A stretch of DNA of 64,000 nt from a virus. The DNA lies in the IMG/VR virus record IMGVR_UViG_3300027741_000030, positions 32,001 to 96,000 of that record; one strand, given 5' to 3'. Under the pieces are notes generated by a model that worked only from the letters and a program-made list of their open reading frames with translations, was not told the DNA's origin and did no database searches. This document shows, in pieces, positions 9,328 to 28,537 of the stretch (positions are counted from its first letter, which is position 1; each line of letters opens with the position of its first letter). The position numbers were made by a program, and so were the translations under genes.

Positions 9328-10299
9328 ATGTCAAAAAAGTTTTTAGTTAGTATTGATCTCAATAAAAATGAGTTACTCAATGCTAGAATTCAAAATTTAG
9401 GATCAGCACCAACTAGTCCAGTATCGGGTCAAGTTTACTACAATACTGGCGATAATATTATGTACTTCTGGAATGGTACAGAGTGGATTTCTACTTCTGG
9501 ATCTTTAGAAGTTATTCAAGATGCTATTGGTCAATATATTGTTGGAGGAACAGGATTAACCTCAACATATAATGACCCAGCAGGATATACAACAATTAAG
9601 CTTAATGATACCTCAGTTACTGCAGGCACATACGGCTCAATTACAAAAGTACCAACATTTACTGTTGACCAGCAAGGACGTTTAACTGCAGCCAGCGAAG
9701 CTAATTTAGTTATACCTCTTAGCACACAAACAACAGGCGATTATGTAGCAACTATAGTCGGAACAGCTGGAAAAGTTACAGTATCTCCAAATAGTGGACA
9801 TAATGCAGCAGTTACAATTGGTTTACCAGATGACGTAACAATTACAAATAACTTGACTGTAGGTGGAGATTTAAATGTAACAGGTAAAGTAAATTCTGTT
9901 AACACCACAACAATCAACGTTCAAGATAATAAAGTAAATCTTAACTCAGCATTTACAGGAAACCCAGTAGCAGATGCTGGAATTAGAGTTGAGCGTGGAG
10001 ACAAGCAAGATGTCGAAATCTTGTGGAAAGAGTCTTCAGAAAAATGGCAATTAACAAATGATGGCGTAAACTATCATTCAATTGCTAGAAAATATGTACA
10101 GGTTCTTGGAAGCCCATCTACAACTTATAATTTAACACACAATTTAAAAACATCTGAGGTTACAGTTCAGGTTTTTCAGTCTGCCAGCCCATTTGCTCAA
10201 GTTGAAGCAGATGTTAATTTAACAGATGAAAATACAGTAACAATTAATTTTGCTGTTGCACCAACAGCAGGAGAATACAAGGTTGTGATTGTAGGCTAA
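9328..10299 (+). CDS. Tail fibre/virion structural protein
   Basis: VTAGTYGS...TFTVDQQGRLTAAS fibre motif; Thr/Gly/Val-rich; THNL C-terminal domain. Confidence 0.7.
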   Translation: MSKKFLVSIDLNKNELLNARIQNLGSAPTSPVSGQVYYNTGDNIMYFWNGTEWISTSGSLEVIQDAIGQYIVGGTGLTSTYNDPAGYTTIKLNDTSVTAGTYGSITKVPTFTVDQQGRLTAASEANLVIPLSTQTTGDYVATIVGTAGKVTVSPNSGHNAAVTIGLPDDVTITNNLTVGGDLNVTGKVNSVNTTTINVQDNKVNLNSAFTGNPVADAGIRVERGDKQDVEILWKESSEKWQLTNDGVNYHSIARKYVQVLGSPSTTYNLTHNLKTSEVTVQVFQSASPFAQVEADVNLTDENTVTINFAVAPTAGEYKVVIVG

Positions 10300-10300
10300 A

Positions 10301-10762
10301 ATGTCAAGAAAAATGAAGGTGTTATTAAATTTACTTACAATGGTAACAGACCCAGACGTAGGGCAAGAAGGTGATGTTTACTTTAACGTAACCTCTAAAA
10401 ATTTAAGAATATTTAATGGTTTTGAATGGATTGAGCTTACACCCCCAAGCACAGATCCCACACCATTTTATAGACACACTCATGCTTATGATGGCGAAGT
10501 CGCAACAATTGATATGCAGAATCCAATAACATTTTTAGAGTATAATGAGATAGAGTCTGCAGCAGTAATTCTTCCAGAAGTTGTTGGAATGGATGGAGGA
10601 GGCCCAGTGGAAACAAATGTTAATCCGTCATGGGAAACCTTAACGCTATTTGATGGCGGCACAGAGCAAGAAGTTTTAGAGAATGATAATCTAATAGATG
10701 AAGGAGGATCCGAAGACATCGTAGGAGGAGATATCTTAGATGGTGGAGGATCACACGAATAA
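10301..10762 (+). CDS. Acidic fibre adaptor with DGG repeats
   Basis: GDVYFN...F.G.EW; repeated MDGG/FDGG/LDGG at C-terminus; precedes Mtd_N fibre. Confidence 0.6.
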   Translation: MSRKMKVLLNLLTMVTDPDVGQEGDVYFNVTSKNLRIFNGFEWIELTPPSTDPTPFYRHTHAYDGEVATIDMQNPITFLEYNEIESAAVILPEVVGMDGGGPVETNVNPSWETLTLFDGGTEQEVLENDNLIDEGGSEDIVGGDILDGGGSHE

Positions 10763-12759
10763 TGACAACTAGAATTCAATTAAGAAGAGATACAGCACAG
10801 AACTGGTCTTTAAATAATCCTATACTTTTATCAGGAGAGCTAGGAATTGAAACAGACACACTAAAAATAAAAATAGGTAACGGTTCAAGATGGAACTCTA
10901 TTTTAAATTATGCGTTTAAAGTTGGTCAGGCCAATGGAATTGCAACACTAGACTCAACAGGCAAAATTCCATCATCTCAAATTCCTACAAATATTAACAT
11001 ATCAGAGTTAATTGATTCTCTTACAACTTCAGATATTGAAGAAGGATCAAATTTATATTTTACAAATTCTAGAGCAGTATCAGCAAACGCTTCTGCAATT
11101 ACAAATGCAATTGCAACAGAGGTTACAAATAGAAATGCTGCTATTGCTACTGCAAAGACTGAAGCCATTACCGCTGCATCAACAGATGCCACAACAAAAG
11201 TTAATTTGGCGCAATCTACAGCAGCTTCAGATGCTACAGTAAAAGCAAATGCTGCAAAAAATGAAGCAATTGCAGCATCTGCAATTGATGCTACTACAAA
11301 AGTTAATTCTGCGTTATCAACAGTTGCATCTAATTTAAATTCAGCAATTTCAGCAGAAGCTTCAAATAGAAACTCAGCAATTTCAACAGCAATTTCAGGA
11401 AGAATAAATACTCTTACAACAAGTAATATTGCTGAAGGAACAAATAAATATTTTACAGATGCTCGTGCAAAAGCAGCAGTAGCCTCTGATATTGCTGATG
11501 CAATTGATGCAATTCAATATGATGCAGGTATAACAGATCTTGCTTCATTTACAACATCTAATTTAGCAGAAGGTTCAAACCTTTATTTTACAAATGCAAG
11601 AGCAATTTCTGCAACAAATAATAAATTTAATGATATTTTAATAGCAATCAATACAGCAACAGATGATTTGTCTTTGACAATTTCAAATGACTATTTATCT
11701 AAGTCTGAAGCTGCCAGCACATATGTAACATCACAAACTTTATCTAATACAGTTTCAGATTATGTTTTAGAAGCAGATAGAAACCAACAGGGTGGATTTG
11801 CAGGTCTTGATAATACAACTAAAGTATTAGATTCAGTAATTCCATCAACAATTGCTAGAGTGTCTTCTCCTACATTTACAGGAACTGTAAATGCATCAAA
11901 CTTAACTATTACAGGAAACCTAACAGTATCTGGAACAACAACAACAGTTAATTCTGAAAATTTATCAATAAATGATCCACTAATAAAGCTTTCACAAAAT
12001 CAATATACCGCAGATGTTATGGACATTGGTATTTATGGTTCATATGGAGCTTCTGGAAATAATGCAGGAAATCACCCACACACTGGGCTTGTCCGTGATG
12101 CATCAGATAAAAAATGGAAGTTAATATCTGGAGCAGCAGAGCCAATATCAAATGAAATAAATTTTGCATCAGTAGTTTATGATACATTAAAAGTTGGAGG
12201 CCTTGAAGTTGGGTCAGTTACCAATACAGAAATTGGATATTTAAGTGGAGTAACAAGCTCAATACAGTCTCAGATATCTTCTAAGGCCCCTGTAGCATCA
12301 CCAACATTTACTGGAACAGTTTCTGGTATTACAAAATCTATGGTTGGACTTGCAAATGTTGATAACACAACAGATGCAAACAAACCAATATCTTCTGCTA
12401 CACAAGCTGCATTGAATGCTAAATTAACATCAGCTCAAGCAGATTTAAAGTATGCAACAATTGAAAATCCTTCATTTATTGGAGTTGTTGATTTTTCATC
12501 AGTAACTGTAACTGGACTTACATTAGGAGATTCCCTTCCAAGCCAGTCTGGAAATTATGGAAAATATTTAACAACAGACGGTTCAACAGCATCTTGGTCA
12601 ACAATAAACCTTGCTAGCTATCTTTCTAAAATAGAGGCCTCTTCAAATTATTTAACAAAAGCAGATGCAGCCAATGCTTATCAGTCTAAGATTACATACG
12701 GAACAACCCAAACACCAACAACTGCTGGCGTGGCTGGCGATATTTATATACAGTACTAG
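10762..12759 (+). CDS. Tail fibre with Mtd N-terminal-like domain (fibre 1)
   Basis: RIQLRRDTAQNW...PILLSGELGIETDT.KIKIGNG; Ala-rich coiled coil; EGSNLYFT repeats; ends GDIYIQY. Confidence 0.85.
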   Translation: MTTRIQLRRDTAQNWSLNNPILLSGELGIETDTLKIKIGNGSRWNSILNYAFKVGQANGIATLDSTGKIPSSQIPTNINISELIDSLTTSDIEEGSNLYFTNSRAVSANASAITNAIATEVTNRNAAIATAKTEAITAASTDATTKVNLAQSTAASDATVKANAAKNEAIAASAIDATTKVNSALSTVASNLNSAISAEASNRNSAISTAISGRINTLTTSNIAEGTNKYFTDARAKAAVASDIADAIDAIQYDAGITDLASFTTSNLAEGSNLYFTNARAISATNNKFNDILIAINTATDDLSLTISNDYLSKSEAASTYVTSQTLSNTVSDYVLEADRNQQGGFAGLDNTTKVLDSVIPSTIARVSSPTFTGTVNASNLTITGNLTVSGTTTTVNSENLSINDPLIKLSQNQYTADVMDIGIYGSYGASGNNAGNHPHTGLVRDASDKKWKLISGAAEPISNEINFASVVYDTLKVGGLEVGSVTNTEIGYLSGVTSSIQSQISSKAPVASPTFTGTVSGITKSMVGLANVDNTTDANKPISSATQAALNAKLTSAQADLKYATIENPSFIGVVDFSSVTVTGLTLGDSLPSQSGNYGKYLTTDGSTASWSTINLASYLSKIEASSNYLTKADAANAYQSKITYGTTQTPTTAGVAGDIYIQY

Positions 12760-12768
12760 GAGGAACAA

Positions 12769-15700
12769 ATGCCATTTAAAATTTTTGACGGCTCCTCTTG
12801 GAATCAATTCAAAAATATAAAAATTAACGACGGTACCTCTTGGCAACCGTATAAAAAAGCATTTGTTCATAATGGTACAGAGTGGAAAGAAATAGTTGTA
12901 CCAATACCAGTAAATACAGCATTACCAGAGCTTTCATGGTCAACAGGCATACCTAACATTGTTAATCAAAATGTATCTATTTCAAATGGTACATGGACAA
13001 ACTCTCCAACATCATATAAATATCAATGGCAAAGTGGTTATTATGCAGTTTCTGGGTCATTAATATGGGAAGATATAGCAGGTGCAACATCTAATTCATA
13101 TTCAATTACTTCAGATCAAATATGCATGTTTATGGTTGGAAGATTGATAAGATGTTCTGTTATAGCTGTAAATGATTCTGGAGAAAGTCTTAAATCTTAT
13201 GGCTCAATGTATCAAACAATTATTGCTCCAGAAACAATGACATCTCTTTCTGCAATTGTTGAATCAAACGGTGTTGTAAAGCTTTCATGGAATAAATCAA
13301 AAGGTGCAAATGGATATTATCTTCAGTATCAAGGTCCAGAAGTTGCATTTACACAAATGGATTTGGGAGATGTAACATCCTACACAATAAATACTGGACT
13401 AGCCTCTGGAACACTTGGAATATTTCTTGCTGCAATAAATACAACTAGCCCATGGAAAACTTATTCAAATTCAAATGTTCAAGGTCAGGGAATGAATGCT
13501 GTTATATATGACCTTAAACCACTTAAGCCAAGAGTTACAGCAACATCTGTTGTTCAAACTACAAATGCTATAACAATAAATTGGACAAATGAACGTTTAA
13601 ATCAAACTTCTTATGAAATTAGAACAATTGCAATAGATGGATCTCCAGTAAATAATGGTCAATATAATTATTTCTTTGAAATGTATGATGGATCTTATAC
13701 AAGTTTTACAACAGATGATATTCCAGGCGGACGTTCTTATACTTATAAAATTATAGTAAACGGAACAGCTCCAGGATTTAACGAAACTTCTTGGGAATCA
13801 AATCCAACTACAACTACACTTCCAATGCCACCTCTTCCATCAATTATTACTGCACCAGTAATAACTAGTAATGGAAGATATTTTGGTTTATCAACAGGCG
13901 CACAATGGACAAATAATCCAGATTCAACTTTATATAGTTGGTTTGCAAATGGACAAGCATTAGGTCAATATGGAGGATCTATAACCTTAGACAGCTCATA
14001 TGATGGACAATCTGTCTATGTTGTTTCTTATGCAACAAATGCAGCAGGAACTTCACAATCACAAAGTAATTCATTAACTTGTTCATCCCCATCTCGTCCA
14101 ACCAATCTGTCTAGCCCAATAATAATTCAATTTAATGGAACTATGACAATTTCAAGTAACGGTACTTGGAATGGTAATCCAACTTCTTATAGATATCAGT
14201 GGTATAGATCACATATAGACACTGGAAGAACTAGTACAGTTGGATCTAATAGCTCCACGTATTCTTATGGATCAAGCACAAATTACGAATATTATGTTCT
14301 AGTTTGGGCAACAAATCAATATGGAGAAAGTTTATATGCTGCAATTTCAAATTCTTTAGTACCTACATCAGGCAATGTAACATACGGAGCATGCGAATCT
14401 TATTCAAATGGAACTGACTACGGCTACGATTGTTCTGGAACTACAAAGATGACCTGGACAAGAACAATACTTGATTATAGAGAGCCTCAACTTTTAAATG
14501 GCCTTGCAAATGGAACATATAGATATGGCTGCTCGGCAAGAACATATGGACAAAAACAATATGGACCAACCTATGCTTGGACATTTAATTCTGCAGATTG
14601 TGGATATCAAGAAACAATTTGTACTACTTGTAATTGGTATATTCCATCAACAGGATACTATAGCAGAAATGATTCAAGTTGTGCGTCTGGAAGAAGATAC
14701 TATAGAACTTGTATAACACCAAGTACTTGCGATAATATTGACGTAGTCGGGGATTGTGTTCCGCAATCAACCGATTGCAATACAGTTGTAAGATATATTC
14801 CAGAAAGTGGATGGGAAACTTCTCCATCTACTTCAGCAACAGGATTTCCAGCCTGTTCTTCAGGATTTAGATATTACAAGGTTGCGGTTAAAAATGAGGG
14901 TTGTTTAAATGAGTTAATTTGGGGAGATTGTACAGCATCAACATGGTATTGTACATTAAACGCAACAGACGATCAAAACTATTGGACTTCAGCAACAGAT
15001 GTTTCTGTAGAAGTATGCGGATCTTATAAGATTGTTTGTTCGACATCTGGATATCCACCTATGCCATCAATTCCAGCCTGTACACCTACACCAACTCCGA
15101 CACCTACACCAACTCCTACCCCAACCCCTACACCTACACCTTTGGATTGCTCTCCCGCAAATGGAAACTGTGGCTCGTCACCGTGTTCTGACTGCAACCC
15201 TGCTCTAAGCGGCCCAAGAGTGGACTCATCGTGCCCTTCAGGTTACAGAAATGTGTGTTGGACTGGCGGTAGTTGTCAAAACACAGGTGATTGTGTACCT
15301 GTTACTCCAACACCAACTCCTACACCAACTCCTACACCAACTCCTACACCAACTCCTACACCAACTCCGACACCTACACCAACTCCGACACCTGCAAGCC
15401 CATGTTGCCAACCTGACGACGGTGGATATTGCACAAATATTGATGGAAATGGATATGGAGATTATTATAATTACCAGTACGATCCTTGCACTGCATCCGC
15501 ATGCCCACCACAATATGTAGGAAGAACTTTCTGTGGAGTTCCAACACCACCATCATTCTTTGCCCCTCCAACATTCTTTAACCCTCCAGACTTCGGAAAC
15601 AACTGTCAAACATGTGTAAGCTATGGAGGTCCTTGCGGAACTTATGGAAACGGAACTTGGTGTATAACACCTGGAGCTTGTCCAAATATTTGTCAAGGAG

Positions 15701-15843
15701 ACTATTATAGCCCTCCAACATTCTTTAACCCTCCAGACTTCTTTAGCCCCCCAGACTTCTGGTACTGGGAACCTCCATTCTTCGGCTGGACACCTCCAGA
15801 CTTCTTTAGCCCTCCAAACTTCTATTCAGAACCGTTTGACTGA
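12769..15843 (+). CDS. Putative fibre-tip adhesin: Trp-rich anchor, Ig/FN3 domains, Cys-rich modules, (PT)n linkers, FFxPP repeats
   Basis: N-terminal DGSSW/DGTSW/NGTEW; NGTW...YQW Ig repeats; C-terminal Cys-rich and PPxFF repeats. Confidence 0.75.
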   Translation: MPFKIFDGSSWNQFKNIKINDGTSWQPYKKAFVHNGTEWKEIVVPIPVNTALPELSWSTGIPNIVNQNVSISNGTWTNSPTSYKYQWQSGYYAVSGSLIWEDIAGATSNSYSITSDQICMFMVGRLIRCSVIAVNDSGESLKSYGSMYQTIIAPETMTSLSAIVESNGVVKLSWNKSKGANGYYLQYQGPEVAFTQMDLGDVTSYTINTGLASGTLGIFLAAINTTSPWKTYSNSNVQGQGMNAVIYDLKPLKPRVTATSVVQTTNAITINWTNERLNQTSYEIRTIAIDGSPVNNGQYNYFFEMYDGSYTSFTTDDIPGGRSYTYKIIVNGTAPGFNETSWESNPTTTTLPMPPLPSIITAPVITSNGRYFGLSTGAQWTNNPDSTLYSWFANGQALGQYGGSITLDSSYDGQSVYVVSYATNAAGTSQSQSNSLTCSSPSRPTNLSSPIIIQFNGTMTISSNGTWNGNPTSYRYQWYRSHIDTGRTSTVGSNSSTYSYGSSTNYEYYVLVWATNQYGESLYAAISNSLVPTSGNVTYGACESYSNGTDYGYDCSGTTKMTWTRTILDYREPQLLNGLANGTYRYGCSARTYGQKQYGPTYAWTFNSADCGYQETICTTCNWYIPSTGYYSRNDSSCASGRRYYRTCITPSTCDNIDVVGDCVPQSTDCNTVVRYIPESGWETSPSTSATGFPACSSGFRYYKVAVKNEGCLNELIWGDCTASTWYCTLNATDDQNYWTSATDVSVEVCGSYKIVCSTSGYPPMPSIPACTPTPTPTPTPTPTPTPTPTPLDCSPANGNCGSSPCSDCNPALSGPRVDSSCPSGYRNVCWTGGSCQNTGDCVPVTPTPTPTPTPTPTPTPTPTPTPTPTPTPTPASPCCQPDDGGYCTNIDGNGYGDYYNYQYDPCTASACPPQYVGRTFCGVPTPPSFFAPPTFFNPPDFGNNCQTCVSYGGPCGTYGNGTWCITPGACPNICQGDYYSPPTFFNPPDFFSPPDFWYWEPPFFGWTPPDFFSPPNFYSEPFD
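15082..15393 (+). repeat. Two (Pro-Thr)n coding tandem repeats
   Basis: ACACCAACTCCT-type 6/12-nt repeats at about 15082-15141 and 15304-15393. Confidence 0.9.
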
Positions 15844-15911
15844 TGATGCTGATATCAGAATGCTTTACATCAAGCGGTGTCCCATGCTCCAAAGCAGGAT
15901 CATGGTGTTAG
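15843..15911 (+). CDS. 22-aa Cys-rich micro-ORF
   Basis: MMLISECFTSSGVPCSKAGSWC; TGATG overlap with the upstream stop. Confidence 0.3.
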   Translation: MMLISECFTSSGVPCSKAGSWC

Positions 15912-15949
15912 TATTGTAAAAATGGTGTCAATATGGTAGAATTAACATT

Positions 15950-16189
15950 ATGAAAATAAATATTTATAAAGATGAAAAAATATTCATATCTGTTTCTGCA
16001 CCAAATGATATGATTGATTTTTTTAAAAATAAAAATAGTATAACTTATACTATAGAGCCAAACATAGAAACAGAGGGAAGACATTTTTTAAAATATGTTT
16101 TTGAAGAAAATATTTTTAATGCTGGAATAAATGACGCAATGGCAGAGGCCATATTAAACGAATATAGATTTGAGTTGATTAATGAATGA
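15950..16189 (+). CDS. Hypothetical protein (leaderless)
   Basis: TTGTAA-N17-TAGAAT ends 7 nt before ATG. Confidence 0.65.
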   Translation: MKINIYKDEKIFISVSAPNDMIDFFKNKNSITYTIEPNIETEGRHFLKYVFEENIFNAGINDAMAEAILNEYRFELINE

Positions 16190-16421
16190 AGAACTTACCC
16201 CCTGGGAAAAATATAAGCAAAATTTAGGTGAAACAAGACCTTGGGATATTGTAAATCCTGCAACAGAGTGGGTAGACGAAGATAAAGCAAAAGAAAGATT
16301 TGCTATTTGTAAAGCTTGTCCAGAACTTATAAAACTAACTACTCAATGCAAGAAGTGTGGCTGTATTATGAAGATAAAAACAAAACTTGAAAAAGCTTCC
16401 TGCCCAATTGGTAAATGGTAA
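16182..16421 (+). CDS. Cys-rich small protein (DUF6171-like)
   Basis: R..IC..C...CKKCGC...K......CP.GKW. Confidence 0.7.
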   Translation: MNEELTPWEKYKQNLGETRPWDIVNPATEWVDEDKAKERFAICKACPELIKLTTQCKKCGCIMKIKTKLEKASCPIGKW

Positions 16422-16957
16422 TGATTATTAAAGAATCTGAAATAATAAAAACAATATTTCCACCACAAGAACTAAAAGAGCTACAAAAGTATGCCATGAA
16501 AATGTGGTCAACGCAACCAAATTACGATAAATCATTTGGAAGACACCAATGGGCAGACACTGAAGAATTAAAGAAATTTCACGAGCTACTAACAGAGTTT
16601 GCAAGAGAGCATTTTGAGTCAGAAACACTCAAACCTTCTTGGTGCCTAATGTCAGTTTACGAGGGCAAAGATGCAAAATTATGGAAACATAAAGATGATA
16701 ACGCTTGCGTTTATCATATAAATCTTTGTGTATTCCAGAAGACTCCCTGGGAATTTTGGGTAGAGGGAAAGCCGTATTTATTAGAAGAAAATGATGCATT
16801 AATGACATATGGAAATGACCTAGAGCACTGGAGAGAAGATTTTCCAGATCCTGATAATAATTTAGTTTGTAATGCTTTCTTTTTCTTTTGTGAGCCAGAT
16901 CATTGGTACTTTACAGAAGGACCAGAATATCTTTACACTAATATTCGTGCAAAATAA
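16415..16957 (+). CDS. 2OG-Fe(II) oxygenase
   Basis: LWKHKDDNAC...YG..LEHWRE (HxD...H). Confidence 0.75.
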   Translation: MVMIIKESEIIKTIFPPQELKELQKYAMKMWSTQPNYDKSFGRHQWADTEELKKFHELLTEFAREHFESETLKPSWCLMSVYEGKDAKLWKHKDDNACVYHINLCVFQKTPWEFWVEGKPYLLEENDALMTYGNDLEHWREDFPDPDNNLVCNAFFFFCEPDHWYFTEGPEYLYTNIRAK

Positions 16958-17016
16958 GTCGGATTATAAAAAATATTAATGTATAATTAATTTATGCAGT
17001 ACCGCCAGGAGGAACA

Positions 17017-17577: not shown

Positions 17578-17605
17578 AAAAAGCAGTACAAGGGAGTCAT
17601 AAATT

Positions 17606-18763: not shown

Positions 18764-18827
18764 TTAAATAAAGGGTATGGGGTCCCACCAAAACCTCAAC
18801 AAAACAATTAGGGGATAGTGAACTTAA

Positions 18828-19199: not shown

Positions 19200-19260
19200 T
19201 TGTTTTGGAATTATTGTGATGTTATAATTAGCAAATAAGTCTAAATAAGGGGTGGCAAAT

Positions 19261-22260
19261 ATGTCAACAGTAAGAATTCAAGTAAGAAGAGGAACAGCAG
19301 CACAGTGGACCTCAGTAAATCCAATTTTGGCAGCAGGAGAAATGGGTGTCGAGTCAGACACAAACCTATTTAAATTCGGTAACGGATCATCTACCTGGAC
19401 CGCCCTTGCATATGCAAACAATTCAGATGTAGCGATTGGTGAAATTTCCCAAGACGCAATTAACACTGCACTTACAATGGGTGCAGGACTTTCAAAAACT
19501 TACAATGATGGTGCTAACACAATAACAATTAACGTTGATTCAAACGTAGTAGCACTTAAGTCATATGTAAACGCTCAAGTTTCAGCACTTGCAAATACAC
19601 TTGATACAGACTACATTCCACTAGCAGATCGTGGAGCAAATGGCGGAGTTGCATCATTAGACAGCACTGGAAAAATTCCAGCAGCTCAATTAAATATTAC
19701 AGAAACAATTCAAGACGTAGTTGGCTCAACGTTAGTTTCTGGAAGAGGATCAACTTTTTATTATAGCGATCAAGATAATACAATAACTCTTACAGCAGGT
19801 TTAAGAGGACAAGGTTCAGTTTCCGTAACTAATGCAACAGATAATAATGATTTAATTGTTAAATTAAATCCAGTTGTTGCTGCTGATACAAAATTTACAG
19901 GACCTCTTGTTGAAGTTGGAACAGTAACAGCAACAGATGTTAATGCAACAAATGTTTCAATATCTGGAAACTTAACAGTAAATGGAACAACTACAACTGT
20001 AAATTCAACAAATGTTACAATTGATGACCCAATGATCTACATTGGCGATAACAATCAATCAAATAGCCTAGATCTTGGTGTTGTAGCAGCATTTAATAAT
20101 GGAACATATCAGCACTCAGGTCTTGTTCGTGATGCATCAGATGGAAAATGGAAACTTTTTTCAGGTGTAATAGCAGAACCAACAACAACAGTAGATTTTA
20201 CAACGTATACAAAAGATTCTCTTGAAATTGGAGGATTGCATGCAGACTCAGCAAGAATTGGAAATGTTACTAATGATGAAATTCAACATCTAGACGGAGT
20301 TAGCTCAGCAATTCAAACTCAAATTGATTCAAAGCTTTCTACAACTAGAGCAGAGGCAATATATGCGCCAAAAGAATCACCTTATTTTTCTGGAACAGTA
20401 ACTTTGCCAGAAGGAACAGTTACATCAGCAATGATTGCAAATGGCACAATTGTTAATGCAGATATAAATACTTATGCAGAAATTGATCAATCAAAAATTG
20501 CTAATCTTGTTACAAATCTTGCAGCAAAAGCTCCATCAGCATCTCCTACATTTACAGGCACAGTAGTTCTTCCTGCAAATACATCAATTGGAAATGTTTC
20601 ATCAACAGAAATTGGTTATCTTGATGGAGTAACATCAGGAATTCAACAGCAACTTGCTCCAGTTCAAGGTTTAGTCAATTCAGTAAATACACTTGTAACT
20701 GATTTAAATTCAGCTGAAAATACAATATCTTCACTTGAATCATCTGTTACTTCAATTAATACAACAACAAATAGCCTTCAAACACAAATTAATACAAAAG
20801 CATCAACTGCATCACTTACAGCACATGAGGCAGACACAACAAATATTCATGGCATTGCAGATACAACTGCACTTGCTACAAAAACTTATGCAGATTCAGC
20901 AGTTTCAACTGCAGTTTCTGCACTAACAAAATCATCAGTTGGCCTTGCAAATGTTGATAACACATCAGATGCAAATAAGCCAGTATCTTCAGCAACATCA
21001 ACAGCACTTGCGCTCAAAGCGTCACTTGCCTCACCAACATTTACTGGAACTGTTTCTGGTATTACAAAGTCTATGGTTGGGCTTTCAAATGTAGATAATA
21101 CTGCAGATTCAGCAAAACCTGTTTCAACAGCACAGCAAACAGCACTTGATGCCAAATTAGCGCTTGCTGGAGGAACAATGACAGGAGCACTTACACTTTC
21201 AGGTGCACCTACATCAGATCTTCATGCAGCAACTAAGTCTTACGTAGATGGAATTGCTTCTGGAATTAACTTTCATAAATCAGTTAAAATTGCAACAACA
21301 ACTAACTGGTCAGCAGTATATGCAAATGGAACAAATGGTTATGGAGCAACATTAACAGCATCCGTAAATCAATCAATTAACCCAGCAGATGGAGTAACTC
21401 TTGCTGTTGGTGATAGAATTCTTGTAAAATCACAAACAGATGCAAAGCAAAATGGTATCTATGATATAACTTCTGTGGGAGGTTCTTCTTCCAAGTGGGT
21501 TCTTACTCGTTCAGCAGATTCTGATAACAATCCAAATGGGGAAGTTGCAGGTGGAGATTTTACTTTCGTAACAGAAGGTTCTACAAATGCAAGTATTGGA
21601 TTTATCTTGTCTTCACCATCAGGTGCAGCAACTCTTGGAACAGATAATATTGTTTATACACAGTTTAACGCAGCACAAGCAGTAACTGTAGGTGCTGGTA
21701 TTACTAAGTCTGGTTCAACACTTTCAATTGGAACTGGTGCCATTACATCAGATATGATTGTAGATGGAACAATTGTTGATGCAGATATAAATGCTTCAGC
21801 AGCAATCGCACAATCTAAAATCTCAGGACTTTCAACAAGCCTAGGCTTAAAAGCTAACTTAGCAGATCCTACATTTACTGGAACAGTAACAGTTGATGCA
21901 GCAGGAGTAGCATTTACAGATGGAACTCAGACAAAAGAAGGCGTTCCATCACGGACAACAATTATTTCAAAAACAACAGACTACACTCTTTCAAATCTTT
22001 CAGAACGTGATTCATTAATTGAAATAAATGCAGCAGGAGCTACAACATTAACAGTTCCAGCAGATTCATCAACAAACTATCCAGTAGGAACATCTTTGGA
22101 TATTCTGAGAGTAGGAGCTGGAGCATTAACAGTGTCACCTGCAGCTGGCGTAACATTAAATTACACACCAGGAAACAAGCTTCGTGCACAATGGTCATCT
22201 GCAACTCTTGTAAAGAGAGCAGCAAATACATGGGTACTTCTTGGAGACCTAACAGCTTAA
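19261..22260 (+). CDS. Tail fibre with Mtd N-terminal-like domain (fibre 2)
   Basis: RIQVRRGTAAQW...PILAAGEMGVESDT..FKFGNG; SPTFTGTV and VGL.NVDNT repeats; VGDRILVK.Q...NGIY; ends WVLLGDL. Confidence 0.85.
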   Translation: MSTVRIQVRRGTAAQWTSVNPILAAGEMGVESDTNLFKFGNGSSTWTALAYANNSDVAIGEISQDAINTALTMGAGLSKTYNDGANTITINVDSNVVALKSYVNAQVSALANTLDTDYIPLADRGANGGVASLDSTGKIPAAQLNITETIQDVVGSTLVSGRGSTFYYSDQDNTITLTAGLRGQGSVSVTNATDNNDLIVKLNPVVAADTKFTGPLVEVGTVTATDVNATNVSISGNLTVNGTTTTVNSTNVTIDDPMIYIGDNNQSNSLDLGVVAAFNNGTYQHSGLVRDASDGKWKLFSGVIAEPTTTVDFTTYTKDSLEIGGLHADSARIGNVTNDEIQHLDGVSSAIQTQIDSKLSTTRAEAIYAPKESPYFSGTVTLPEGTVTSAMIANGTIVNADINTYAEIDQSKIANLVTNLAAKAPSASPTFTGTVVLPANTSIGNVSSTEIGYLDGVTSGIQQQLAPVQGLVNSVNTLVTDLNSAENTISSLESSVTSINTTTNSLQTQINTKASTASLTAHEADTTNIHGIADTTALATKTYADSAVSTAVSALTKSSVGLANVDNTSDANKPVSSATSTALALKASLASPTFTGTVSGITKSMVGLSNVDNTADSAKPVSTAQQTALDAKLALAGGTMTGALTLSGAPTSDLHAATKSYVDGIASGINFHKSVKIATTTNWSAVYANGTNGYGATLTASVNQSINPADGVTLAVGDRILVKSQTDAKQNGIYDITSVGGSSSKWVLTRSADSDNNPNGEVAGGDFTFVTEGSTNASIGFILSSPSGAATLGTDNIVYTQFNAAQAVTVGAGITKSGSTLSIGTGAITSDMIVDGTIVDADINASAAIAQSKISGLSTSLGLKANLADPTFTGTVTVDAAGVAFTDGTQTKEGVPSRTTIISKTTDYTLSNLSERDSLIEINAAGATTLTVPADSSTNYPVGTSLDILRVGAGALTVSPAAGVTLNYTPGNKLRAQWSSATLVKRAANTWVLLGDLTA

Positions 22261-22286
22261 TAAAATAAAAGAAATAGGGGAAAAAA

Positions 22287-23084
22287 ATGGCTAATAAGAA
22301 ATTTGGTATTAAATCATCAGGACAGGATAACTTCCTAGCTCCATTTGCACCAACAATAGGAACTGCGACAGATGTTGGTACTAACCGTCCATTTGGTAGC
22401 GGTGCAGTTACAGTAACATTTACACCTGATCCTACATACCCTGCAACATCTTTTACAGCATCTGGTTACTGCAGTGTTCATAACATGACTCACTCAGCAA
22501 CAGGATCATCTTCACCAATAACCATTACTGGTTTTGGTTCAGACATGACAACAACAATTACTGTAACAGCTACAAATCAATATGGAACATCCCCTGCTTC
22601 AAATGCATCTAATACAGTAACAGTTACAACTGTTCCAGCAACTCCTTCGGCCCCATCTGCAACAGCGCAGGTAAACCAAGACTCAGTATCTTGGTCAACA
22701 CCTGCAAATGGAGGAAAAGCAATAACAGGTTATACATTAAGGTCAAGCGATGGCCCAACATATTCAACAGGATCAACTTCTTATACTGTTTCTGAAACTG
22801 CCAATACATCGCAAACATATTATGTAAAAGCTACAAATGCAAACGGAACTTCTCAAGAATCAGCCGCCTCAAATTCGGTTACAACTCTTGCACCGTTCTT
22901 TCCACCTTCATTCTTTGCACCACCAGGATTCTTTGCGCCACCTTCATTCTTCGCACCTCCAGGGTTCTTTGCGCCACCTTCATTCTTCGCACCTCCAGGG
23001 TTCTTCGCACCTCCAGGGTTCTTCGCACCTCCAGGGTTCTTCGCACCTCCAGGGTTCTTCGCACCTCCAGGGTTCTGGGATTAA
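22287..23084 (+). CDS. Two-FN3 virion protein with C-terminal (FFAPP[G/S])9 tail
   Basis: FN3 motifs TVTATN..GTS.AS, W..PANGG..ITGY, YVKATNANGTS; then hexapeptide repeats ending FWD. Confidence 0.85.
   Translation: MANKKFGIKSSGQDNFLAPFAPTIGTATDVGTNRPFGSGAVTVTFTPDPTYPATSFTASGYCSVHNMTHSATGSSSPITITGFGSDMTTTITVTATNQYGTSPASNASNTVTVTTVPATPSAPSATAQVNQDSVSWSTPANGGKAITGYTLRSSDGPTYSTGSTSYTVSETANTSQTYYVKATNANGTSQESAASNSVTTLAPFFPPSFFAPPGFFAPPSFFAPPGFFAPPSFFAPPGFFAPPGFFAPPGFFAPPGFFAPPGFWD
22911..23072 (+). repeat. Nine 18-nt coding tandem repeats
   Basis: Unit TTCTTCGCACCTCCAGGG; last five copies identical. Confidence 0.95.
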
Positions 23085-23102
23085 TTAAATAAATTTTAGC
23101 TC

Positions 23103-23133
23103 TTGACAAAATAGTTTATAATTGATAAACTAT
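23103..23133 (+). promoter_or_regulatory. Promoter with overlapping 9-5-9 inverted repeat
   Basis: TTGACA-N17-TAAACT (TG-extended); ATAGTTTAT-AATTG-ATAAACTAT. Confidence 0.7.
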
Positions 23134-23152
23134 AAATAAAGAAAGAGATGTT

Positions 23153-23827
23153 ATGACACAAACATGGTCAAATAAAGAAATTTTATTTCCAGGATTATGG
23201 GTATATAAAGACGTAATTAAACCAGAATTAAATTTGGTTCCTAGACTGCTTAACCTAATTGACAGCAGTGCTGGAAGAATTAATTGGAAAGAAGCAACTG
23301 TTGGCTATAATGAAAATAGGCCAAAGTATAGGGATTGCCAAGATATAAAAATTGGTGAAATTAAAAATCCTAACAATCCATATGATTATGAATTTAATGA
23401 AATATGGAAATTAGCAAAACATGCACAGTCTGGTCCAGTCGAAGATTACTGCACAGCTCACAGCGTAAGAATGGATTTTTGGGAAGTAATGAATTTTATT
23501 TCTTATGGTCCAGGGCAACATTTTCAAGAACATGCAGATCACGGATTTTCTTACAGTGCAACCGTTTCCCTTGTTGCATATCCAAACGATGACTATGAGG
23601 GTGGAGAACTAGCTTTTCCAAAACTAGGAATTACTGTTAAACCACGAGCAGGAGATCTATACATATTCCCTTCAAGCTATATTTATTCTCACGTGGCTCT
23701 TCCAGTTAAAAGCGGAAAAAAATATTCTATTGTAACTATGCTTGATTATAATGACAATACGCATAACGATGAATACCGTGCATTAGTTGATAGAAGACTA
23801 GGCAATGATAAAAATAAGGGCATATAG
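23153..23827 (+). CDS. 2OG-Fe(II) oxygenase, P4H-like
   Basis: Y..GQHF..HAD...Y.NDDYEGGEL.FP...P.AGD..IFPS...H...PVKSGKKY. Confidence 0.9.
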   Translation: MTQTWSNKEILFPGLWVYKDVIKPELNLVPRLLNLIDSSAGRINWKEATVGYNENRPKYRDCQDIKIGEIKNPNNPYDYEFNEIWKLAKHAQSGPVEDYCTAHSVRMDFWEVMNFISYGPGQHFQEHADHGFSYSATVSLVAYPNDDYEGGELAFPKLGITVKPRAGDLYIFPSSYIYSHVALPVKSGKKYSIVTMLDYNDNTHNDEYRALVDRRLGNDKNKGI

Positions 23828-24515
23828 AAAACAAAAAGATTCTGCAAACATATCACAGCTTTCAGTTAAGAGAGACTGGATGGATGAAACATGGGAATCT
23901 CATGCATACAAATGTTTTCCAGTAAGCCTCACCAATCAGTTGGGATGGGGAATATCATTTCCAGAGGATATAACTTTTATATGGGATGGGATTTCAGACT
24001 CTTCTTCAGATCATGTAAAAATATTATCAGGATTAAAATATGCACATTCAGGAAGAGGAAATGCCACAGTAAGCTTTAATACAGGCATTAGCTTTAAAAC
24101 TGATGAAAATATAAGCCTACTAACAATGCCAGTTCCTAATTATTTAAGGGACGGCATTCAGCCATTTACAACATTAATGAGCACTTCATTTTTTAATGGC
24201 GAATTGCCATGTGCTTTAAGAGTAACAAGACCAAATGTTGAAATAACAATTAAAGCAAATACTCCAATATTTTCAATTCTTCCAATTAACCTTGAAGAAA
24301 TTCAAGATTCTGAAATAATATTTGAAGATGCAAGCCTTCTTCCAGAATTAAGTTTTGATCCAAAAGCTTATGGAGAAGAGGTATATAAAATAAATATGTC
24401 TGGAAAGTGGACAAATTTTTATAGAGATGCCGTTGATCATTTAGGAAACATTTTAGGAAAACATCAAATAAAATCAGTTAGGCTAAAGGTCCATGAGGAC
24501 AAAAGCAACATATGA
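23805..24515 (+). CDS. DUF6065-like protein
   Basis: RDWMD.....AYKCFP....N..GW motif; C-terminal FYR. Confidence 0.7.
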   Translation: MIKIRAYRKQKDSANISQLSVKRDWMDETWESHAYKCFPVSLTNQLGWGISFPEDITFIWDGISDSSSDHVKILSGLKYAHSGRGNATVSFNTGISFKTDENISLLTMPVPNYLRDGIQPFTTLMSTSFFNGELPCALRVTRPNVEITIKANTPIFSILPINLEEIQDSEIIFEDASLLPELSFDPKAYGEEVYKINMSGKWTNFYRDAVDHLGNILGKHQIKSVRLKVHEDKSNI

Positions 24516-24542
24516 TAAAATTATATAAAAGGGGTATTAAAA

Positions 24543-25238
24543 ATGATGAGACAAAATAATGAAATAATAGCAAACAGAGATATTGGTTTGCATGCTCCAA
24601 AATCAATAACCCCTTCAGGATTCTTTGGCAATTCATCTGACAATATAGTAGAGCTAGAAAACTTTTTAACAGAAGATGAAAGAGCAAGACTAATTGATTT
24701 TGCAATGAATAATAAAGTTTGGGATCAAACAGAAAGCCATGTTGATGAAGATGGCCTTGTCCTTTATGATGCTAACATATGGAAAGATAGAGTTTGCACA
24801 TATCATTCTTTAATGAAATCAGATCCAAGTATACTAGAATTAATTAATTCCATGATTGCAAGATTAAAAATTGAAGTAGATAAATTTTTTAATGTTGATG
24901 CAAAAGAAACTGGACCAGCAATTGTAAGGTGGCCAATAGGTGCAAGACAAGAACCACATGCAGATAAAGAATTTCACACTGGAATAGAAAAGGGAAGACC
25001 AAATGATTTCCCCTGGTATGATCTAGCAGGCTTATTTTATTTTAATGATGATTATGAGGGTGGAGAATTATATTTCCCACAACATGGAATTGAGTTTAAA
25101 CCAAAAGCAGGAGCAGCTTATTTTTTCCCAGGAGACATGAACTATACTCATGGAGTTAGACCAGTAACCTCTGGAAATAGATTTACCTCCCCATTTTTTT
25201 GGACCATAATGAAACATTTGGATCAAGTTGAAAAATAA
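24543..25238 (+). CDS. 2OG-Fe(II) oxygenase, P4H-like
   Basis: PHADK...YFNDDYEGGELYFP...HGVRPVTSGNRF. Confidence 0.9.
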   Translation: MMRQNNEIIANRDIGLHAPKSITPSGFFGNSSDNIVELENFLTEDERARLIDFAMNNKVWDQTESHVDEDGLVLYDANIWKDRVCTYHSLMKSDPSILELINSMIARLKIEVDKFFNVDAKETGPAIVRWPIGARQEPHADKEFHTGIEKGRPNDFPWYDLAGLFYFNDDYEGGELYFPQHGIEFKPKAGAAYFFPGDMNYTHGVRPVTSGNRFTSPFFWTIMKHLDQVEK

Positions 25239-25863
25239 TAATTGTTTAATTGATGACAATTTTTTGCTTGATGAAGAGATAGATTATTTACAGCAAATAA
25301 TGTACTCTTATGAAAACACCTTTAATTGGATATATACTCCCACAGGAAACATGGACGCTGGAGATTATCGAGCAGTTCACACTAAAAATACAAACAATTC
25401 AATGCAATTTATTCACACAGCAAAATTAGGAAAAATAGAATATTCAAATTTTTCAAAAGATGCTGAAAAAGTTTTATATAAGTTTTGTAAAAAAAACAAT
25501 ATAGAGGTTATAGATGTTTTTAGAATTAAAGCTAATTTAATTCCAAAACAAAATGATTATTTGCAAACAAATATGCCACACGTAGATAATGTTATTGATA
25601 TTATTCCTGAACATACAGAGGGAGAGCATTATGTTTTTTTGTATTATGTAAACGATTCAGACGGCCCAACAGTAATCTTTAATGAAAAATATAATGGAGA
25701 AAAAAAAGATATCTTTTCTATAAAACAAAAAATTAACCCAGTAGCTGGAAGAGGCATATTGTTTAATGCAGACCAATACCACGCCTCATCTATACCTAAA
25801 AAAACAAACTTAAGATGTGTAATAAACATTAATTTAATAGGAAAAAAAATAAATGATAATTAA
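25228..25863 (+). CDS. 2OG-Fe(II) oxygenase
   Basis: PHVD...LYYVNDSDGPT...HASS.P...RCVININ. Confidence 0.8.
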   Translation: MKNNNCLIDDNFLLDEEIDYLQQIMYSYENTFNWIYTPTGNMDAGDYRAVHTKNTNNSMQFIHTAKLGKIEYSNFSKDAEKVLYKFCKKNNIEVIDVFRIKANLIPKQNDYLQTNMPHVDNVIDIIPEHTEGEHYVFLYYVNDSDGPTVIFNEKYNGEKKDIFSIKQKINPVAGRGILFNADQYHASSIPKKTNLRCVININLIGKKINDN

Positions 25864-26293
25864 AAATTTAACCAAAAAAGAAATAGAGGCTTCCAGAGTC
25901 CTATTAGATCTGACCCTAGGCATAGAGCATTCAGGTAAATCTTTTTTTAGTCATTTATACAACACATTTTATATATTAAAAAAAATGAATTTAGACGAGG
26001 ATACATGCCTGGCAGGAATGTATCATTCGATATATGGAACAGAGTATTTTAAGATAGACAAACAGGTGCAAAAAGATGAAGTTATTAAAACAATTGGACA
26101 AAAAGCAAATAAATTGGTAGAATATTTTTGTACAGAAAACAGAAATGATTTTATTTTAAACGGTAAAATAGAAGATCAAGATAGGCTTTCTTTATTGTAT
26201 ATTTTATATGCAAACGAAATAGAGCAAAGAGGCGAAAAAAACATTTTGTTTTTAAATCAAATAAAAGAAGAAATAGGAAAGAAATTGCTATGA
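25853..26293 (+). CDS. HD-like helical protein (DUF6817-like)
   Basis: HSG.SF..HL..T...L.......C.AG.YHSIYGTE. Confidence 0.7.
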   Translation: MIIKNLTKKEIEASRVLLDLTLGIEHSGKSFFSHLYNTFYILKKMNLDEDTCLAGMYHSIYGTEYFKIDKQVQKDEVIKTIGQKANKLVEYFCTENRNDFILNGKIEDQDRLSLLYILYANEIEQRGEKNILFLNQIKEEIGKKLL

Positions 26294-27117
26294 CAAACTT
26301 AGAGTATATTGAGCTATATCCAAGAATAGATGTTTATAGAAATGTTTTAAAAGATCCACAGGCTTTATATCAAACTATGAAAAAATCTGAGGAAACTTCA
26401 AATGGAGAATACCTTTTAAAAACTTGGGATGCATGGGCAAAATTTGGAACCTACACTCAAAAGAAAGACTTGGCTGAAGTTTCAGAAGATACAAAAACTA
26501 AAAATATGTTTATTGAAGAAAAAGATTTTGTAGATCAGGTTCAAGCAGCTTATGATTTAGTTTTGTTGGATTACATAAAAAGACACAATGTTGAGTTAAA
26601 GCCAGGTTGGCATTTTAGCGGCTGCTCTTTTTCAAAATATAAAGATGGAGTAGACACTCTAAAAAATAAAATGACAATGCAGTATCACACTGATTTTATT
26701 ATTGCAGAAAGAGAAATGCCTGGACCTAAGTTTCAATTAACATGTACAATGTACATAAATGATGATTATCAAGGCGGAGACATAGAATTTTTTATTGATG
26801 GAAAGCTGATTAATCATAAGCCACAAGCAGGAGACATTCTTGTCTTCCCATCAGACGAACCATATTTTCATGGAGTTAAAACAATATACAATGGCCAAAA
26901 GTTTTTTGTAAGAAATTTTGTAATGTACCCTTACGATGGAAGCCCTGAATGGCTAGCAAATCAAAAACAATTTGGTGCAGTAAATTGGATGAAAAAAGAA
27001 TTTATTAGATTAGAAGAAGATACAAAAAGAAACATGAAATACGTTGAAGATGGTGTAGAAATTGCAGTAGAGATTGCACACGCAAACCATAATGTAGAGT
27101 CAAAGGAAAGTATGTAA
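26290..27117 (+). CDS. 2OG-Fe(II) oxygenase, P4H-like
   Basis: YHTD...YINDDYQGGDIEF...KPQAGDILVFPS..PYFHGV. Confidence 0.88.
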   Translation: MTNLEYIELYPRIDVYRNVLKDPQALYQTMKKSEETSNGEYLLKTWDAWAKFGTYTQKKDLAEVSEDTKTKNMFIEEKDFVDQVQAAYDLVLLDYIKRHNVELKPGWHFSGCSFSKYKDGVDTLKNKMTMQYHTDFIIAEREMPGPKFQLTCTMYINDDYQGGDIEFFIDGKLINHKPQAGDILVFPSDEPYFHGVKTIYNGQKFFVRNFVMYPYDGSPEWLANQKQFGAVNWMKKEFIRLEEDTKRNMKYVEDGVEIAVEIAHANHNVESKESM

Positions 27118-27875
27118 TGGAACTAATAAAAATAGCAGAAGACATTCATCTATATAAAAATTTTATAGAAGATGAAGAACTTGCTAAAGTAACATCTTTA
27201 TTAAAAAAATTACAAAATACCGACAAAGACTATTGGAAGTCTATATCTTTTTATGAGTCATATTCCGCCAGATACCCTTATGATGGAGAACCAATTTTAG
27301 AAGAATTTGGTTTGCCTGCAACTTATTTTTCTGATCTAAGAAATAGGTTTAAAGAAGCAGCCGCACATGTTGCTAATCAGCCAGTTGAAAAAATGTCTCA
27401 AATAAGTTTTCATATTCAAAGATGGCTTCCAGGTTCTTTTGCACCAAAGCATTCTGACAACAGTGATAATGAAGGAAACATGGGAGCCTTTACAAGAAGC
27501 AGATACGCTGGATTTTTATACTTAAATGATGACTTTGAAGGAGGCACCTTAAAGTTTGAAGCACAACACGGAGAGCTGCCATTAGAAATAATTCCAGAAG
27601 CTGGATCTTTTTTAATATTCCACGGCGGTCACAAAAACATGCATGAGGTTACTGTAGTAAAAAAGAGCCCAAGATACACAATAGGTTCTTTTTGGGACGA
27701 TAGAGAAGAATCAGATTATCCACAAGACGTAAGAGATGCTTGGGCTGAAGAGCTTAAAAAAGTTAGAGCAATTCAAGCTGAAGAAGCGGTAGAGTGGAAA
27801 GAAGTTAGAGAAAAGGGATTACGTCTAACACCAGATGGCAAGTCTATACCAGCATCTGAAGTGGAAGATTTATGA
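27117..27875 (+). CDS. 2OG-Fe(II) oxygenase, P4H-like
   Basis: HSDN...YLNDDFEGG.L.F...HEVTVV...RY. Confidence 0.88.
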   Translation: MELIKIAEDIHLYKNFIEDEELAKVTSLLKKLQNTDKDYWKSISFYESYSARYPYDGEPILEEFGLPATYFSDLRNRFKEAAAHVANQPVEKMSQISFHIQRWLPGSFAPKHSDNSDNEGNMGAFTRSRYAGFLYLNDDFEGGTLKFEAQHGELPLEIIPEAGSFLIFHGGHKNMHEVTVVKKSPRYTIGSFWDDREESDYPQDVRDAWAEELKKVRAIQAEEAVEWKEVREKGLRLTPDGKSIPASEVEDL

Positions 27876-28537
27876 TAGACGAAAAATCAAATAAATTTGA
27901 TCCAAATGACATGTATCACATGTTTATACCAAATGTTTTAGAGAACAATATTTGGTATTATAAAAATGTTGTAAGCTATCCAAAAGAGCTATTAGATTTT
28001 ATTAATGAAGTTGATAATGATGCTAGAAGCCACGGTAAAATAACAAAGTGGTTCCCTTGGACTGCTAGCAATAATGGCTCTTTAATATACGGAGATAACA
28101 AAAATGTTCTACCTTCAAATATGAAAGATGTCACAGACGCTGGAAGACTAGATCAAAAAATACTATATATATCAAATAGCATAAAGATGGCTTTTCAAAT
28201 GTGTCTTGATAATTACTTTGCTTCAAGAAATATTGATTCGTCAAATTATGTTTTGCCAATGAGTGAGATTCCATTAAGAAGGTGGGGAGTGGGTCCTGGA
28301 ATGGGTCCTCATTGTGATAACTATGACGGGCATACAAATCTTGCTTTTTCTATGATTCTATATTTAAACAACAACTACGAAGGCGGGGAAATCGAGTTTC
28401 CAAATCAGGGAGTGTCTTTAAAGCCAGATGAGGGCAGCCTAATTATATTCCCAAGCAGTGAGCCATACCTTCACAAAGTAAATGAGATTAAATCGGGAGA
28501 TAGGTACACATCACATCTTTCAGTATATACAAGATAG
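27872..28537 (+). CDS. 2OG-Fe(II) oxygenase, P4H-like
   Basis: MGPHCD...YLNNNYEGGEIEFP...PYLHKV...GDRY. Confidence 0.9.
   Translation: MIDEKSNKFDPNDMYHMFIPNVLENNIWYYKNVVSYPKELLDFINEVDNDARSHGKITKWFPWTASNNGSLIYGDNKNVLPSNMKDVTDAGRLDQKILYISNSIKMAFQMCLDNYFASRNIDSSNYVLPMSEIPLRRWGVGPGMGPHCDNYDGHTNLAFSMILYLNNNYEGGEIEFPNQGVSLKPDEGSLIIFPSSEPYLHKVNEIKSGDRYTSHLSVYTR

Follow-up and report, generated by a model that had tools for sequence, protein, structure and literature searches.

A prolyl-hydroxylase-like oxygenase operon adjoins Phe/Pro repeat-tailed tip protein genes in an uncultured tailed phage

The window analysed here is a 64,000-bp stretch of viral DNA with a G+C content of approximately 35%, comprising positions 32001-96000 of the 115,655-bp IMG/VR record IMGVR_UViG_3300027741_000030, which was rated complete by CheckV. 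It holds two cassettes of fibre genes, each with a gene for a tip protein that terminates in Phe/Pro repeats. The second tip gene is followed by an operon of 2-oxoglutarate (2OG)/Fe(II) oxygenases and a DUF6065 gene; the relation of this operon, whose first enzyme (OX1) resembles prolyl 4-hydroxylases (P4Hs), to the repeat tails is the subject of this report. Coordinates with the prefix w refer to the window and those with the prefix G000: to the whole record, and L with a number denotes a related locus. The tip genes, the open reading frames (ORFs) of the operon and the promoter-like sites are arranged as follows:

w12769..15843, + strand: cassette-1 tip protein of 1024 aa, with (PT)n linkers, Cys-rich modules and C-terminal FFxPP[T/D/N] units in the translation
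w15914..15942, + strand: sigma-70-like site after the cassette-1 tip gene, TTGTAA-17-TAGAAT with TG, a consensus match only
w22287..23084, + strand: cassette-2 tip protein of 265 aa, an FN3 part and a (FFAPPG/S)9 tail at w22893-23076
w23103..23131, + strand: promoter-like site after the tip gene and ahead of the oxygenase operon, TTGACA-17-TAAACT with TG
w23153..23827, + strand: OX1, P4H-like 2OG/Fe(II) oxygenase (PF13640 E 6.6e-13)
w23805..24515, + strand: DUF6065 protein (PF19541 E 5e-29)
w24543..25238, + strand: OX2 oxygenase (PF13640; HxD...H motif)
w25228..26293, + strand: accessory genes, OX3 (w25228, weak PF13640) and a DUF6817/HD_4 protein (w25853, E 6e-16)
w26290..28537, + strand: OX4 (w26290), OX5 (w27117) and OX6 (w27872), PF13640, overlapping or abutting ORFs

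As a first-pass annotation of this DNA had proposed, both tip genes terminate in FFxPP-type repeats. Seven [FYW][FYW]xPP units (FFAPPT, FFNPPD, YYSPPT, FFSPPD and others) form the C-terminus of the 1024-aa protein, and the 265-aa protein runs from an fn3-like part (Pfam E 1.7e-4, below the cut-off) through PFFPPS and nine FFAPP[G/S] units to FWD and the stop codon. The 'Ig/FN3' label that the larger protein had been given found no support in Pfam or PHROG. At the DNA level the cassette-2 array is an 18-nt tandem repeat of 9.2 copies (w22911-23076, TRF), and codon differences among the units are mostly synonymous (70 against 14 non-synonymous), which points to conservation of the peptide. A six-frame scan of the whole genome placed FFxPP arrays in w12769-15843 and w22287-23084 alone, and among the structural genes of the region PP dipeptides were concentrated in the same two proteins. 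The tails are uncharged, and a Pro-Pro-Gly or Pro-Pro-Ser triplet occurs in each cassette-2 unit. With units of six residues, Gly or Ser recurs once in every six, in place of the Gly at every third residue that marks the Gly-X-Y pattern of collagen, and a collagen-like substrate was rejected on this ground; the Pro-Pro-Gly triplets are interrupted by Phe-Phe-Ala. Ahead of its FFxPP units the larger protein carries, within w14380-15843, (PT)n stalks and many Cys residues in repeated modules, an unusual combination in a protein synthesised in the cytoplasm.

Five genes of the cluster (w23153, w24543, w26290, w27117 and w27872) exceeded the PF13640 gathering score of 27 bits; w25228 (OX3) reached 24.1 bits, below this cut-off, with HxD...H present. 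The HxD...H motif and a basic residue were retained in all six (alignment A3). The six 2OG oxygenases, DUF6065 and DUF6817 that had been read after cassette 2 were borne out in this way, by Pfam for five of the oxygenases and by the motif for the sixth. Residues H127, D129, H180 and K190 were invariant among 37 OX1 orthologues. The ORFs of the operon overlap or abut; that of DUF6065 overlaps the OX1 stop codon by 23 nt and is translationally coupled to OX1.

Among the cluster oxygenases, fold comparison was made for OX1 only. Its AF2 model (pLDDT 90.8) returned protein prolyl hydroxylases as the best 50 Foldseek matches (E 4e-11 to 3e-8, TM 0.5-0.7), led by the Pseudomonas putida P4H with EF-Tu (4iw3; E 4e-11, TM 0.64/0.70) and including the Chlamydomonas P4H with (Ser-Pro)5 (3gze), the PBCV-1 enzyme (5c5t), PHD2, Bacillus anthracis P4H and human C-P4H-II. 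When the OX1 profile was compared with PDB sequences, the best match was the B. anthracis P4H (3itq/5hv0, E 2e-7). It was protein prolyl hydroxylases that matched OX1, and not TET/JBP, AlkB or free-amino-acid hydroxylases. From its model OX1 is predicted to fold as a double-stranded beta-helix most similar to those of known protein P4Hs, and it may have the corresponding activity. The B. anthracis enzyme was deposited as a procollagen-proline dioxygenase, and the FFAPPG unit holds a Pro-Pro-Gly triplet. Identity of OX1 to the bacterial P4Hs is nevertheless only approximately 20%, and the phage enzymes differ from them in forming a multi-paralogue operon whose substrates are candidates only. 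OX6 was nearest to PKHD-type hydroxylases.

The N-terminal part of the cassette-2 tip protein has more than 700 metagenomic homologues (45-66% identity) with variable Phe-rich tails, whose C-termini fall into two classes: a PP type (FFxPP[G/S/V], FFPP/YFPP) and an FG type with single prolines (of the GFSPFGVF kind). Around such homologues 149 loci were taken from viral contigs, and their ORFs were called and labelled with hidden Markov models built from the window genes. After removal of identical tip proteins and with at least 6 kb required downstream, 47 PP and 49 FG loci (96 in all) were counted. Gene order was conserved, as g17017 (the gene at w17017), a fibre, a small gene, an Mtd_N fibre and the tip gene. 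At least three oxygenases together with DUF6065 followed the tip gene in 47/47 PP loci and in 0/49 FG loci. The linkage of repeat tails with oxygenases in other genomes, which the first-pass annotation had named as a check of its proposal, was borne out, with 47 loci having both, 49 neither and 0 discordant. Orthologues of OX1, DUF6065, OX2, OX5 and OX6 were present in all 47 PP loci, and OX4 was shared by 41/47; only this genome and a close relative, L001, had OX3 and the DUF6817 gene. Complete PP genomes contained 10, 10 and 15 PF13640 genes, against 1-6 in FG genomes. Where both tip genes of one genome could be compared, they were of the same tail class (11/11 PP, 13/13 FG), although they lie approximately 6 kb apart and their units differ in sequence. 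Upstream, the cluster invariably adjoined a PP-tail gene, irrespective of the N-terminal scaffold of that gene's product, whereas the downstream neighbour varied. Some PP clusters also contain a sulfotransferase-like, an Asp/Asn beta-hydroxylase-like or a short-chain dehydrogenase (SDR) gene (L002:11287-12544, L003:14021-14707, L018:9237-9914).

The association was recovered from the repeat motif itself. A scan of viral contigs for DNA able to encode FFxPPxFFxPPxFF yielded 117 loci, and all 22 tip genes of the FN3 type among them had an OX gene and DUF6065 within 6 kb. The same neighbours stood beside three N-terminal scaffolds, the third consisting of proteins of 100-150 aa that differ at the N-terminus and end in an FFxPP tail; here the tail gene is followed first by OX2, encoded on the other strand, and then by OX1, a divergent form of DUF6065 and one more oxygenase. 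Exceptions were one protein of 785 aa (L244) and the cassette-1 genes, which are separated from the cluster by cassette 2. In a scan of prokaryotes with one genome per species, real arrays occurred only in L278, a 78-kb contig of a Bacteroidia bin, and L288, from a Bacteroidetes bin, both beside OX and DUF6065. The other bacterial and archaeal matches were almost all out-of-frame chance occurrences in GC-rich DNA, and the scan gave no independent cellular example. Since the L278 and L288 contigs carry the phage module, they hint at low-GC freshwater Bacteroidota as hosts.

Downstream of FG tails a different set of genes was found. In all 49 FG loci (e.g. L083, L111 and L125) the tip gene was followed by A7, A8 or both; in L125 the tail gene occupies L125:9989-10711 and A7 L125:10753-11424. 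A7 encodes approximately 220 aa, is often present in two copies and has a conserved His-rich motif, WHDH...HGYY...GHPH; A8 encodes 244 aa and is a distant relative of DUF6065 (hhalign E 1e-4). A7 had no match in Pfam, NCBIfam or PDB sequences. Its neighbours in ESM features, at 0.96, belong to a cluster of which 79% of members carry PF13759 (2OG-FeII_Oxy_5), which is a lead only. With hhalign A7 showed no relation to either OX1 or the Asp/Asn-hydroxylase-like gene of L002, and such a kinship was rejected. If the 2OG-FeII_Oxy_5 lead holds, both tail classes adjoin candidate enzymes, of different families, and PP-tail and FG-tail phages offer in any event a clean natural contrast. The GFSPFGVF-type repeats recall those of FG-nucleoporins.

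The history of the association was followed on two trees. Tail class requires 16 changes on the tree of g17017, which lies 5 kb upstream, at least four of them on well-supported branches, and five changes on that of the tip N-domain. Tail and cluster switched together throughout: the best g17017 tree gave 13/13 such pairs, and supported branches gave 3/3 in both trees. Breakpoints between N-domain and tail occur, and none was found between tail and cluster in the 96 loci, a pattern that fits selection for linkage without amounting to proof.

DUF6065 invariably accompanies OX1. The protein at w23805 scored 101.8 bits against PF19541 (cut-off 26.6), and its model (pLDDT 89.7) has a dUTPase-like fold (VIA Z 9.5, root-mean-square deviation 2.2 A over 116 residues); the best eleven structural matches were all dUTPases, with a Foldseek E of 3e-4. 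Its conserved WDGIxDS stretch is reminiscent of dUTPase motif III. Literature searches on DUF6065 gave nothing relevant.

Taken together, these data are consistent with modification of the tails by the adjoining enzymes. The reading that we favour, and to which we attach even confidence, is that the P4H-like operon hydroxylates the FFxPP tails. The conserved core of the operon (OX1, DUF6065, OX2, OX4 where present, OX5 and OX6) would act on tail prolines and possibly on other positions while the tip proteins are being made in the infected cell, DUF6065 serving, at a guess, as an accessory or non-catalytic partner. Virions would in consequence carry hydrophobic, hydroxylated tails of polyproline-II-like form that may function in adhesion or host recognition. 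In sister phages another set of enzymes would act on the GFSPFGVF-type tails. Were this correct, it would be the first bacteriophage to hydroxylate its own virion proteins, the uncharged Phe/Pro repeat tails would be receptor-binding or adhesion elements of a new type, and DUF6065 and DUF6171 (the latter encoded after the cassette-1 tip gene) would gain a biological context.

Several observations weigh against tail hydroxylation. The number of well-supported independent switches is only 3-5, and three pairs give a sign-test p of 0.25. The 3' end of the tail adjoins the cluster, so that one crossover can move both, and the class of the tail and the set of enzymes could each follow the host, with no enzyme-substrate relationship between them. 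The fold of DUF6065, predicted with high confidence, is dUTPase-like and not that of an oxygenase, with no obvious fit to peptide chemistry; the accessory DUF6817 is an HD-type domain and likewise points to nucleotides, and the SDR and sulfotransferase genes of some relatives also fit small-molecule chemistry. Five of the 10 PF13640 matches of the whole genome lie away from the repeat genes, and a second OX-DUF6065 pair at G000:99410-101217 is far from any repeat gene. The first-pass annotation had placed enzyme genes exactly after each repeat gene; oxygenase genes also occur elsewhere, and the one read in cassette 1 is unconfirmed (below). Fusions of oxygenases with repeat tails or longer proteins were looked for and none was found, although this is weak evidence. 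The tip proteins are assigned to the virion from gene position only. Finally, the P4H of chlorovirus PBCV-1 hydroxylates peptides in vitro, and hydroxyproline was not detected in its virions (PMC7019647). This enzyme had been put forward as a precedent; the in vitro activity stands, and the precedent is weaker than was implied.

Elsewhere in the record, about four or five additional oxygenases were observed at G000:12225-17467 and 29927-30460, and a second DUF6065 paralogue lies at G000:100564-101124.

Many of the related tip proteins of both tail classes do not end plainly after the repeats. The alternatives are a small Cys-rich knot (e.g. ...CWQACPxCCGxxCGC), observed in L018, L039, L045, L060, L069 and L074 and also in L199, L170 and L208, or a domain of approximately 160 aa directly after the last repeat. 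This domain starts with C[IV]xxDT and ends with HN, and is present at L002:10790-11284, L004:4219-4707, L020:10763-11245 and approximately 30 other loci (alignment A6). The first column of A6 is Cys in 28/32 rows, most rows have the HN end, and the profile matched the bacterial intein-like (BIL) domain 2lwy (E 1.9e-8) and several inteins. The likeness of these tip proteins to BIL/Hint proteins comprises the nucleophile Cys at the start, the His-Asn end and the profile match. The two tip proteins of the window are without such a domain. Self-cleavage by the Hint domain would make the Phe-rich repeat the mature C-terminus, or could ligate it. We know of no description of BIL domains on phage fibre-associated proteins after Phe-rich repeats. 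These features admit a wider, tentative reading, to which we give rather little confidence: class-specific tailoring of disordered, Phe-rich 'sticky tails' as swappable adhesins, in which P4H-like enzymes and DUF6065 would serve FFxPP tails, A7 would serve FG tails and intein-like self-cutting would expose or ligate the C-terminus. If true, some of the numerous 2OG oxygenases in aquatic phages would for the first time have an assigned role.

The alternative that survives best, although we regard it as unlikely, is that the oxygenase operon is a separately transcribed accessory island, lying in the host-range region, which is prone to recombination, and that its targets are host proteins or metabolism (for example hydroxylation of EF-Tu or ribosomal proteins, 2OG turnover), its covariation with tail class arising from common host adaptation and travel as one block. 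The promoter-like site ahead of OX1 agrees with this. In relatives the spacer 3' of the tip gene usually bears a TGnTATAAT or TGnTATACT box (L004, L007, L009, L018, L023, L025, L045-L064), often preceded by a GC-rich, terminator-like hairpin, and these boxes and hairpins fit a separate transcription unit for the operon. New promoters after the tip genes had been claimed in the first-pass annotation; sites are indeed present in both spacers, but sigma-70-like sites in the window were not enriched over shuffled sequences, and single sites are no evidence on their own. An accessory island would also account for the scatter of oxygenases elsewhere in this and related genomes and for the scarcity of well-supported independent switches, and EF-Tu is a substrate of bacterial P4Hs related to OX1 (4iw3 and 5v7y are among the best fold matches). 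Cyanophage 2OG oxygenases are similarly regarded as auxiliary genes of unknown role, with proposals that include 2OG sensing and DNA repair (PMC3037559). Against an island stand the constant PP-tail gene upstream of the cluster, on any scaffold and with a varying gene downstream, the breakpoints that fall inside the tip gene and never between tail and cluster, and the fact that FG tails adjoin their own, different enzyme families.

It is much less probable that the enzymes modify other virion proteins. Candidates would be the (PT)n linkers of the 1024-aa protein, the Gly-X-Y runs of the w28554 fibre directly after the cluster and an (EPPAV)n protein with approximately 20 EPPAV units and a signal-peptide-like N-terminus, encoded at G000:113809-115655 and continuing at G000:2-871. 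We take the last repeat to resemble the PEPPA-type peptides accepted by the PBCV-1 enzyme. Homologues of w28554, however, stand after the cluster in just 11/47 PP loci, the PP dipeptides of the structural genes are concentrated in the tip proteins as described above, and the (EPPAV)n protein was rejected as a conserved substrate because five complete relatives, PP or FG, lack the pattern. The (EPPAV)n gene leaves one end of the record and re-enters at the other, indicating terminal redundancy or circular permutation.

We consider it equally improbable that the cluster serves nucleotide or small-molecule metabolism, for example the synthesis of a modified nucleotide or of a secondary metabolite, and stands beside the tail by coincidence. 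The DUF6065 fold (Z 9.5), the DUF6817/HD_4 domain in the operon of this genome and the SDR and sulfotransferase-like genes of some relatives speak for this; against it stand the prolyl hydroxylase matches of OX1, the sporadic occurrence of the HD, SDR and sulfotransferase genes and the strictness of the tail association.

Hydroxylation of the tails, as favoured here, would have partial counterparts among known systems. PBCV-1 similarly encodes a P4H-type oxygenase (vCPH/A085R; 5c5t matched the OX1 model with E 1e-10) and Pro-rich repeat proteins, but it has a single enzyme that does not adjoin the proposed substrates, whereas an operon of 5-6 paralogues with DUF6065 adjoins the Phe/Pro tails here, in a bacteriophage. 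Mimivirus, a eukaryotic giant virus, modifies its own repetitive fibre proteins by a 2OG oxygenase, L230, a lysyl hydroxylase/glycosyltransferase acting on Gly-X-Y collagen repeats; the phage repeats, with a period of six and rich in Phe, are not collagen-like. T4-like cyanophages and Melnitz-type phages share the abundance of PF13640 paralogues per genome, without a reported link of these oxygenases to repeat-tailed structural proteins such as is seen here, and the closest cultured-phage matches of OX1 were 25-32% identical. Oxygenase function in aquatic phages has been puzzling since the first cyanophage genomes, and the present module offers a candidate substrate next door. Literature on phage hydroxyproline and on P4Hs with tail fibres yielded nothing relevant and no description of such a phage module.

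The pathway had also been called 'RiPP-like', after ribosomally synthesised and post-translationally modified peptides. An encoded peptide segment beside tailoring-type enzymes is indeed common to both, and SDRs occur in some RiPP pathways. The term could not be sustained: there is no leader/core precursor, recognition element or released peptide, and the operon has no protease gene or gene of the RiPP recognition element (RRE) type, a BIL domain of the self-cleaving type being confined to some of the relatives. Membership was rejected because the repeat, the proposed substrate, is the C-terminal tail of multidomain structural proteins of 265 and 1024 aa.

The remaining genes of the two cassettes, whose layout agreed with the earlier placement once ORF positions had been checked, are the following:

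w10301..10762, + strand: small gene before fibre 1 ('adaptor 1'), without Pfam match, role from position only
w10762..12759, + strand: fibre 1 with Mtd_N N-terminus (PF18454 E 4.5e-14; PHROG tail-fibre families)
w16182..16421, + strand: DUF6171 small Cys-rich protein (PF19668, 28.9 bits, cut-off 27)
w16415..16957, + strand: phrog_2954 protein, possible distant oxygenase, unconfirmed (PHROG E 3e-13)
w17017..18763, + strand: g17017 and a 385-aa fibre-like protein, start of cassette 2, synteny kept in approximately 100 loci
w18828..19199, + strand: small gene before fibre 2 ('adaptor 2'), position kept in 130 ORFs of related loci, without family match
w19252..22260, + strand: fibre 2 with Mtd_N N-terminus (PF18454 E 1.1e-13; many PHROG tail-fibre matches)
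w28554..29750, + strand: fibre protein closing the enzyme block (PHROG tail spike/fibre families; short Gly-X-Y runs)

The cassette-1 gene w16415, previously read as a 2OG oxygenase, gave no Pfam or PDB match and no relation to OX1 by hhalign. Its phrog_2954 match carries the label 'ferrochelatase', and a language-model (ESM) lead to PF13640 clusters, at 0.91, is weak. The Pfam assignment of DUF6171 at w16182 was confirmed, and its supposed tie to Pro repeats was not, the gene following cassette-1 tip genes in PP and FG genomes alike.

The window region also encodes a ribonucleotide reductase, a portal, a protease, an HK97-type capsid protein and a 2497-aa product of tape-measure size. The capsid protein shares 55-60% identity with its counterparts in Streptomyces siphophages of approximately 130 kb. 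Megablast of the region against cultured phages returned no nucleotide match, and tblastn against the same phages returned none for the tip protein or for DUF6065; the phage group is without a cultured relative in the collection searched. The source is a 115-kb tailed phage of a large, uncultured, mosaic and widespread group.

Both fibres start with Mtd_N, as had been read from the sequence, and have in common this domain and a 59-aa internal block of 66% identity. The 'adaptor' genes had been presented as a pair; no homology between w10301 and w18828 was detectable (BLASTP E 0.5). The fibre-like protein at w17606 matched PHROG tail-fibre families. The fibre at w28554-29750 has short Gly-X-Y stretches (GATGATGATGAQGPTG), and its C-terminal segment resembles the self-cleaving chaperone domain of tail spikes.

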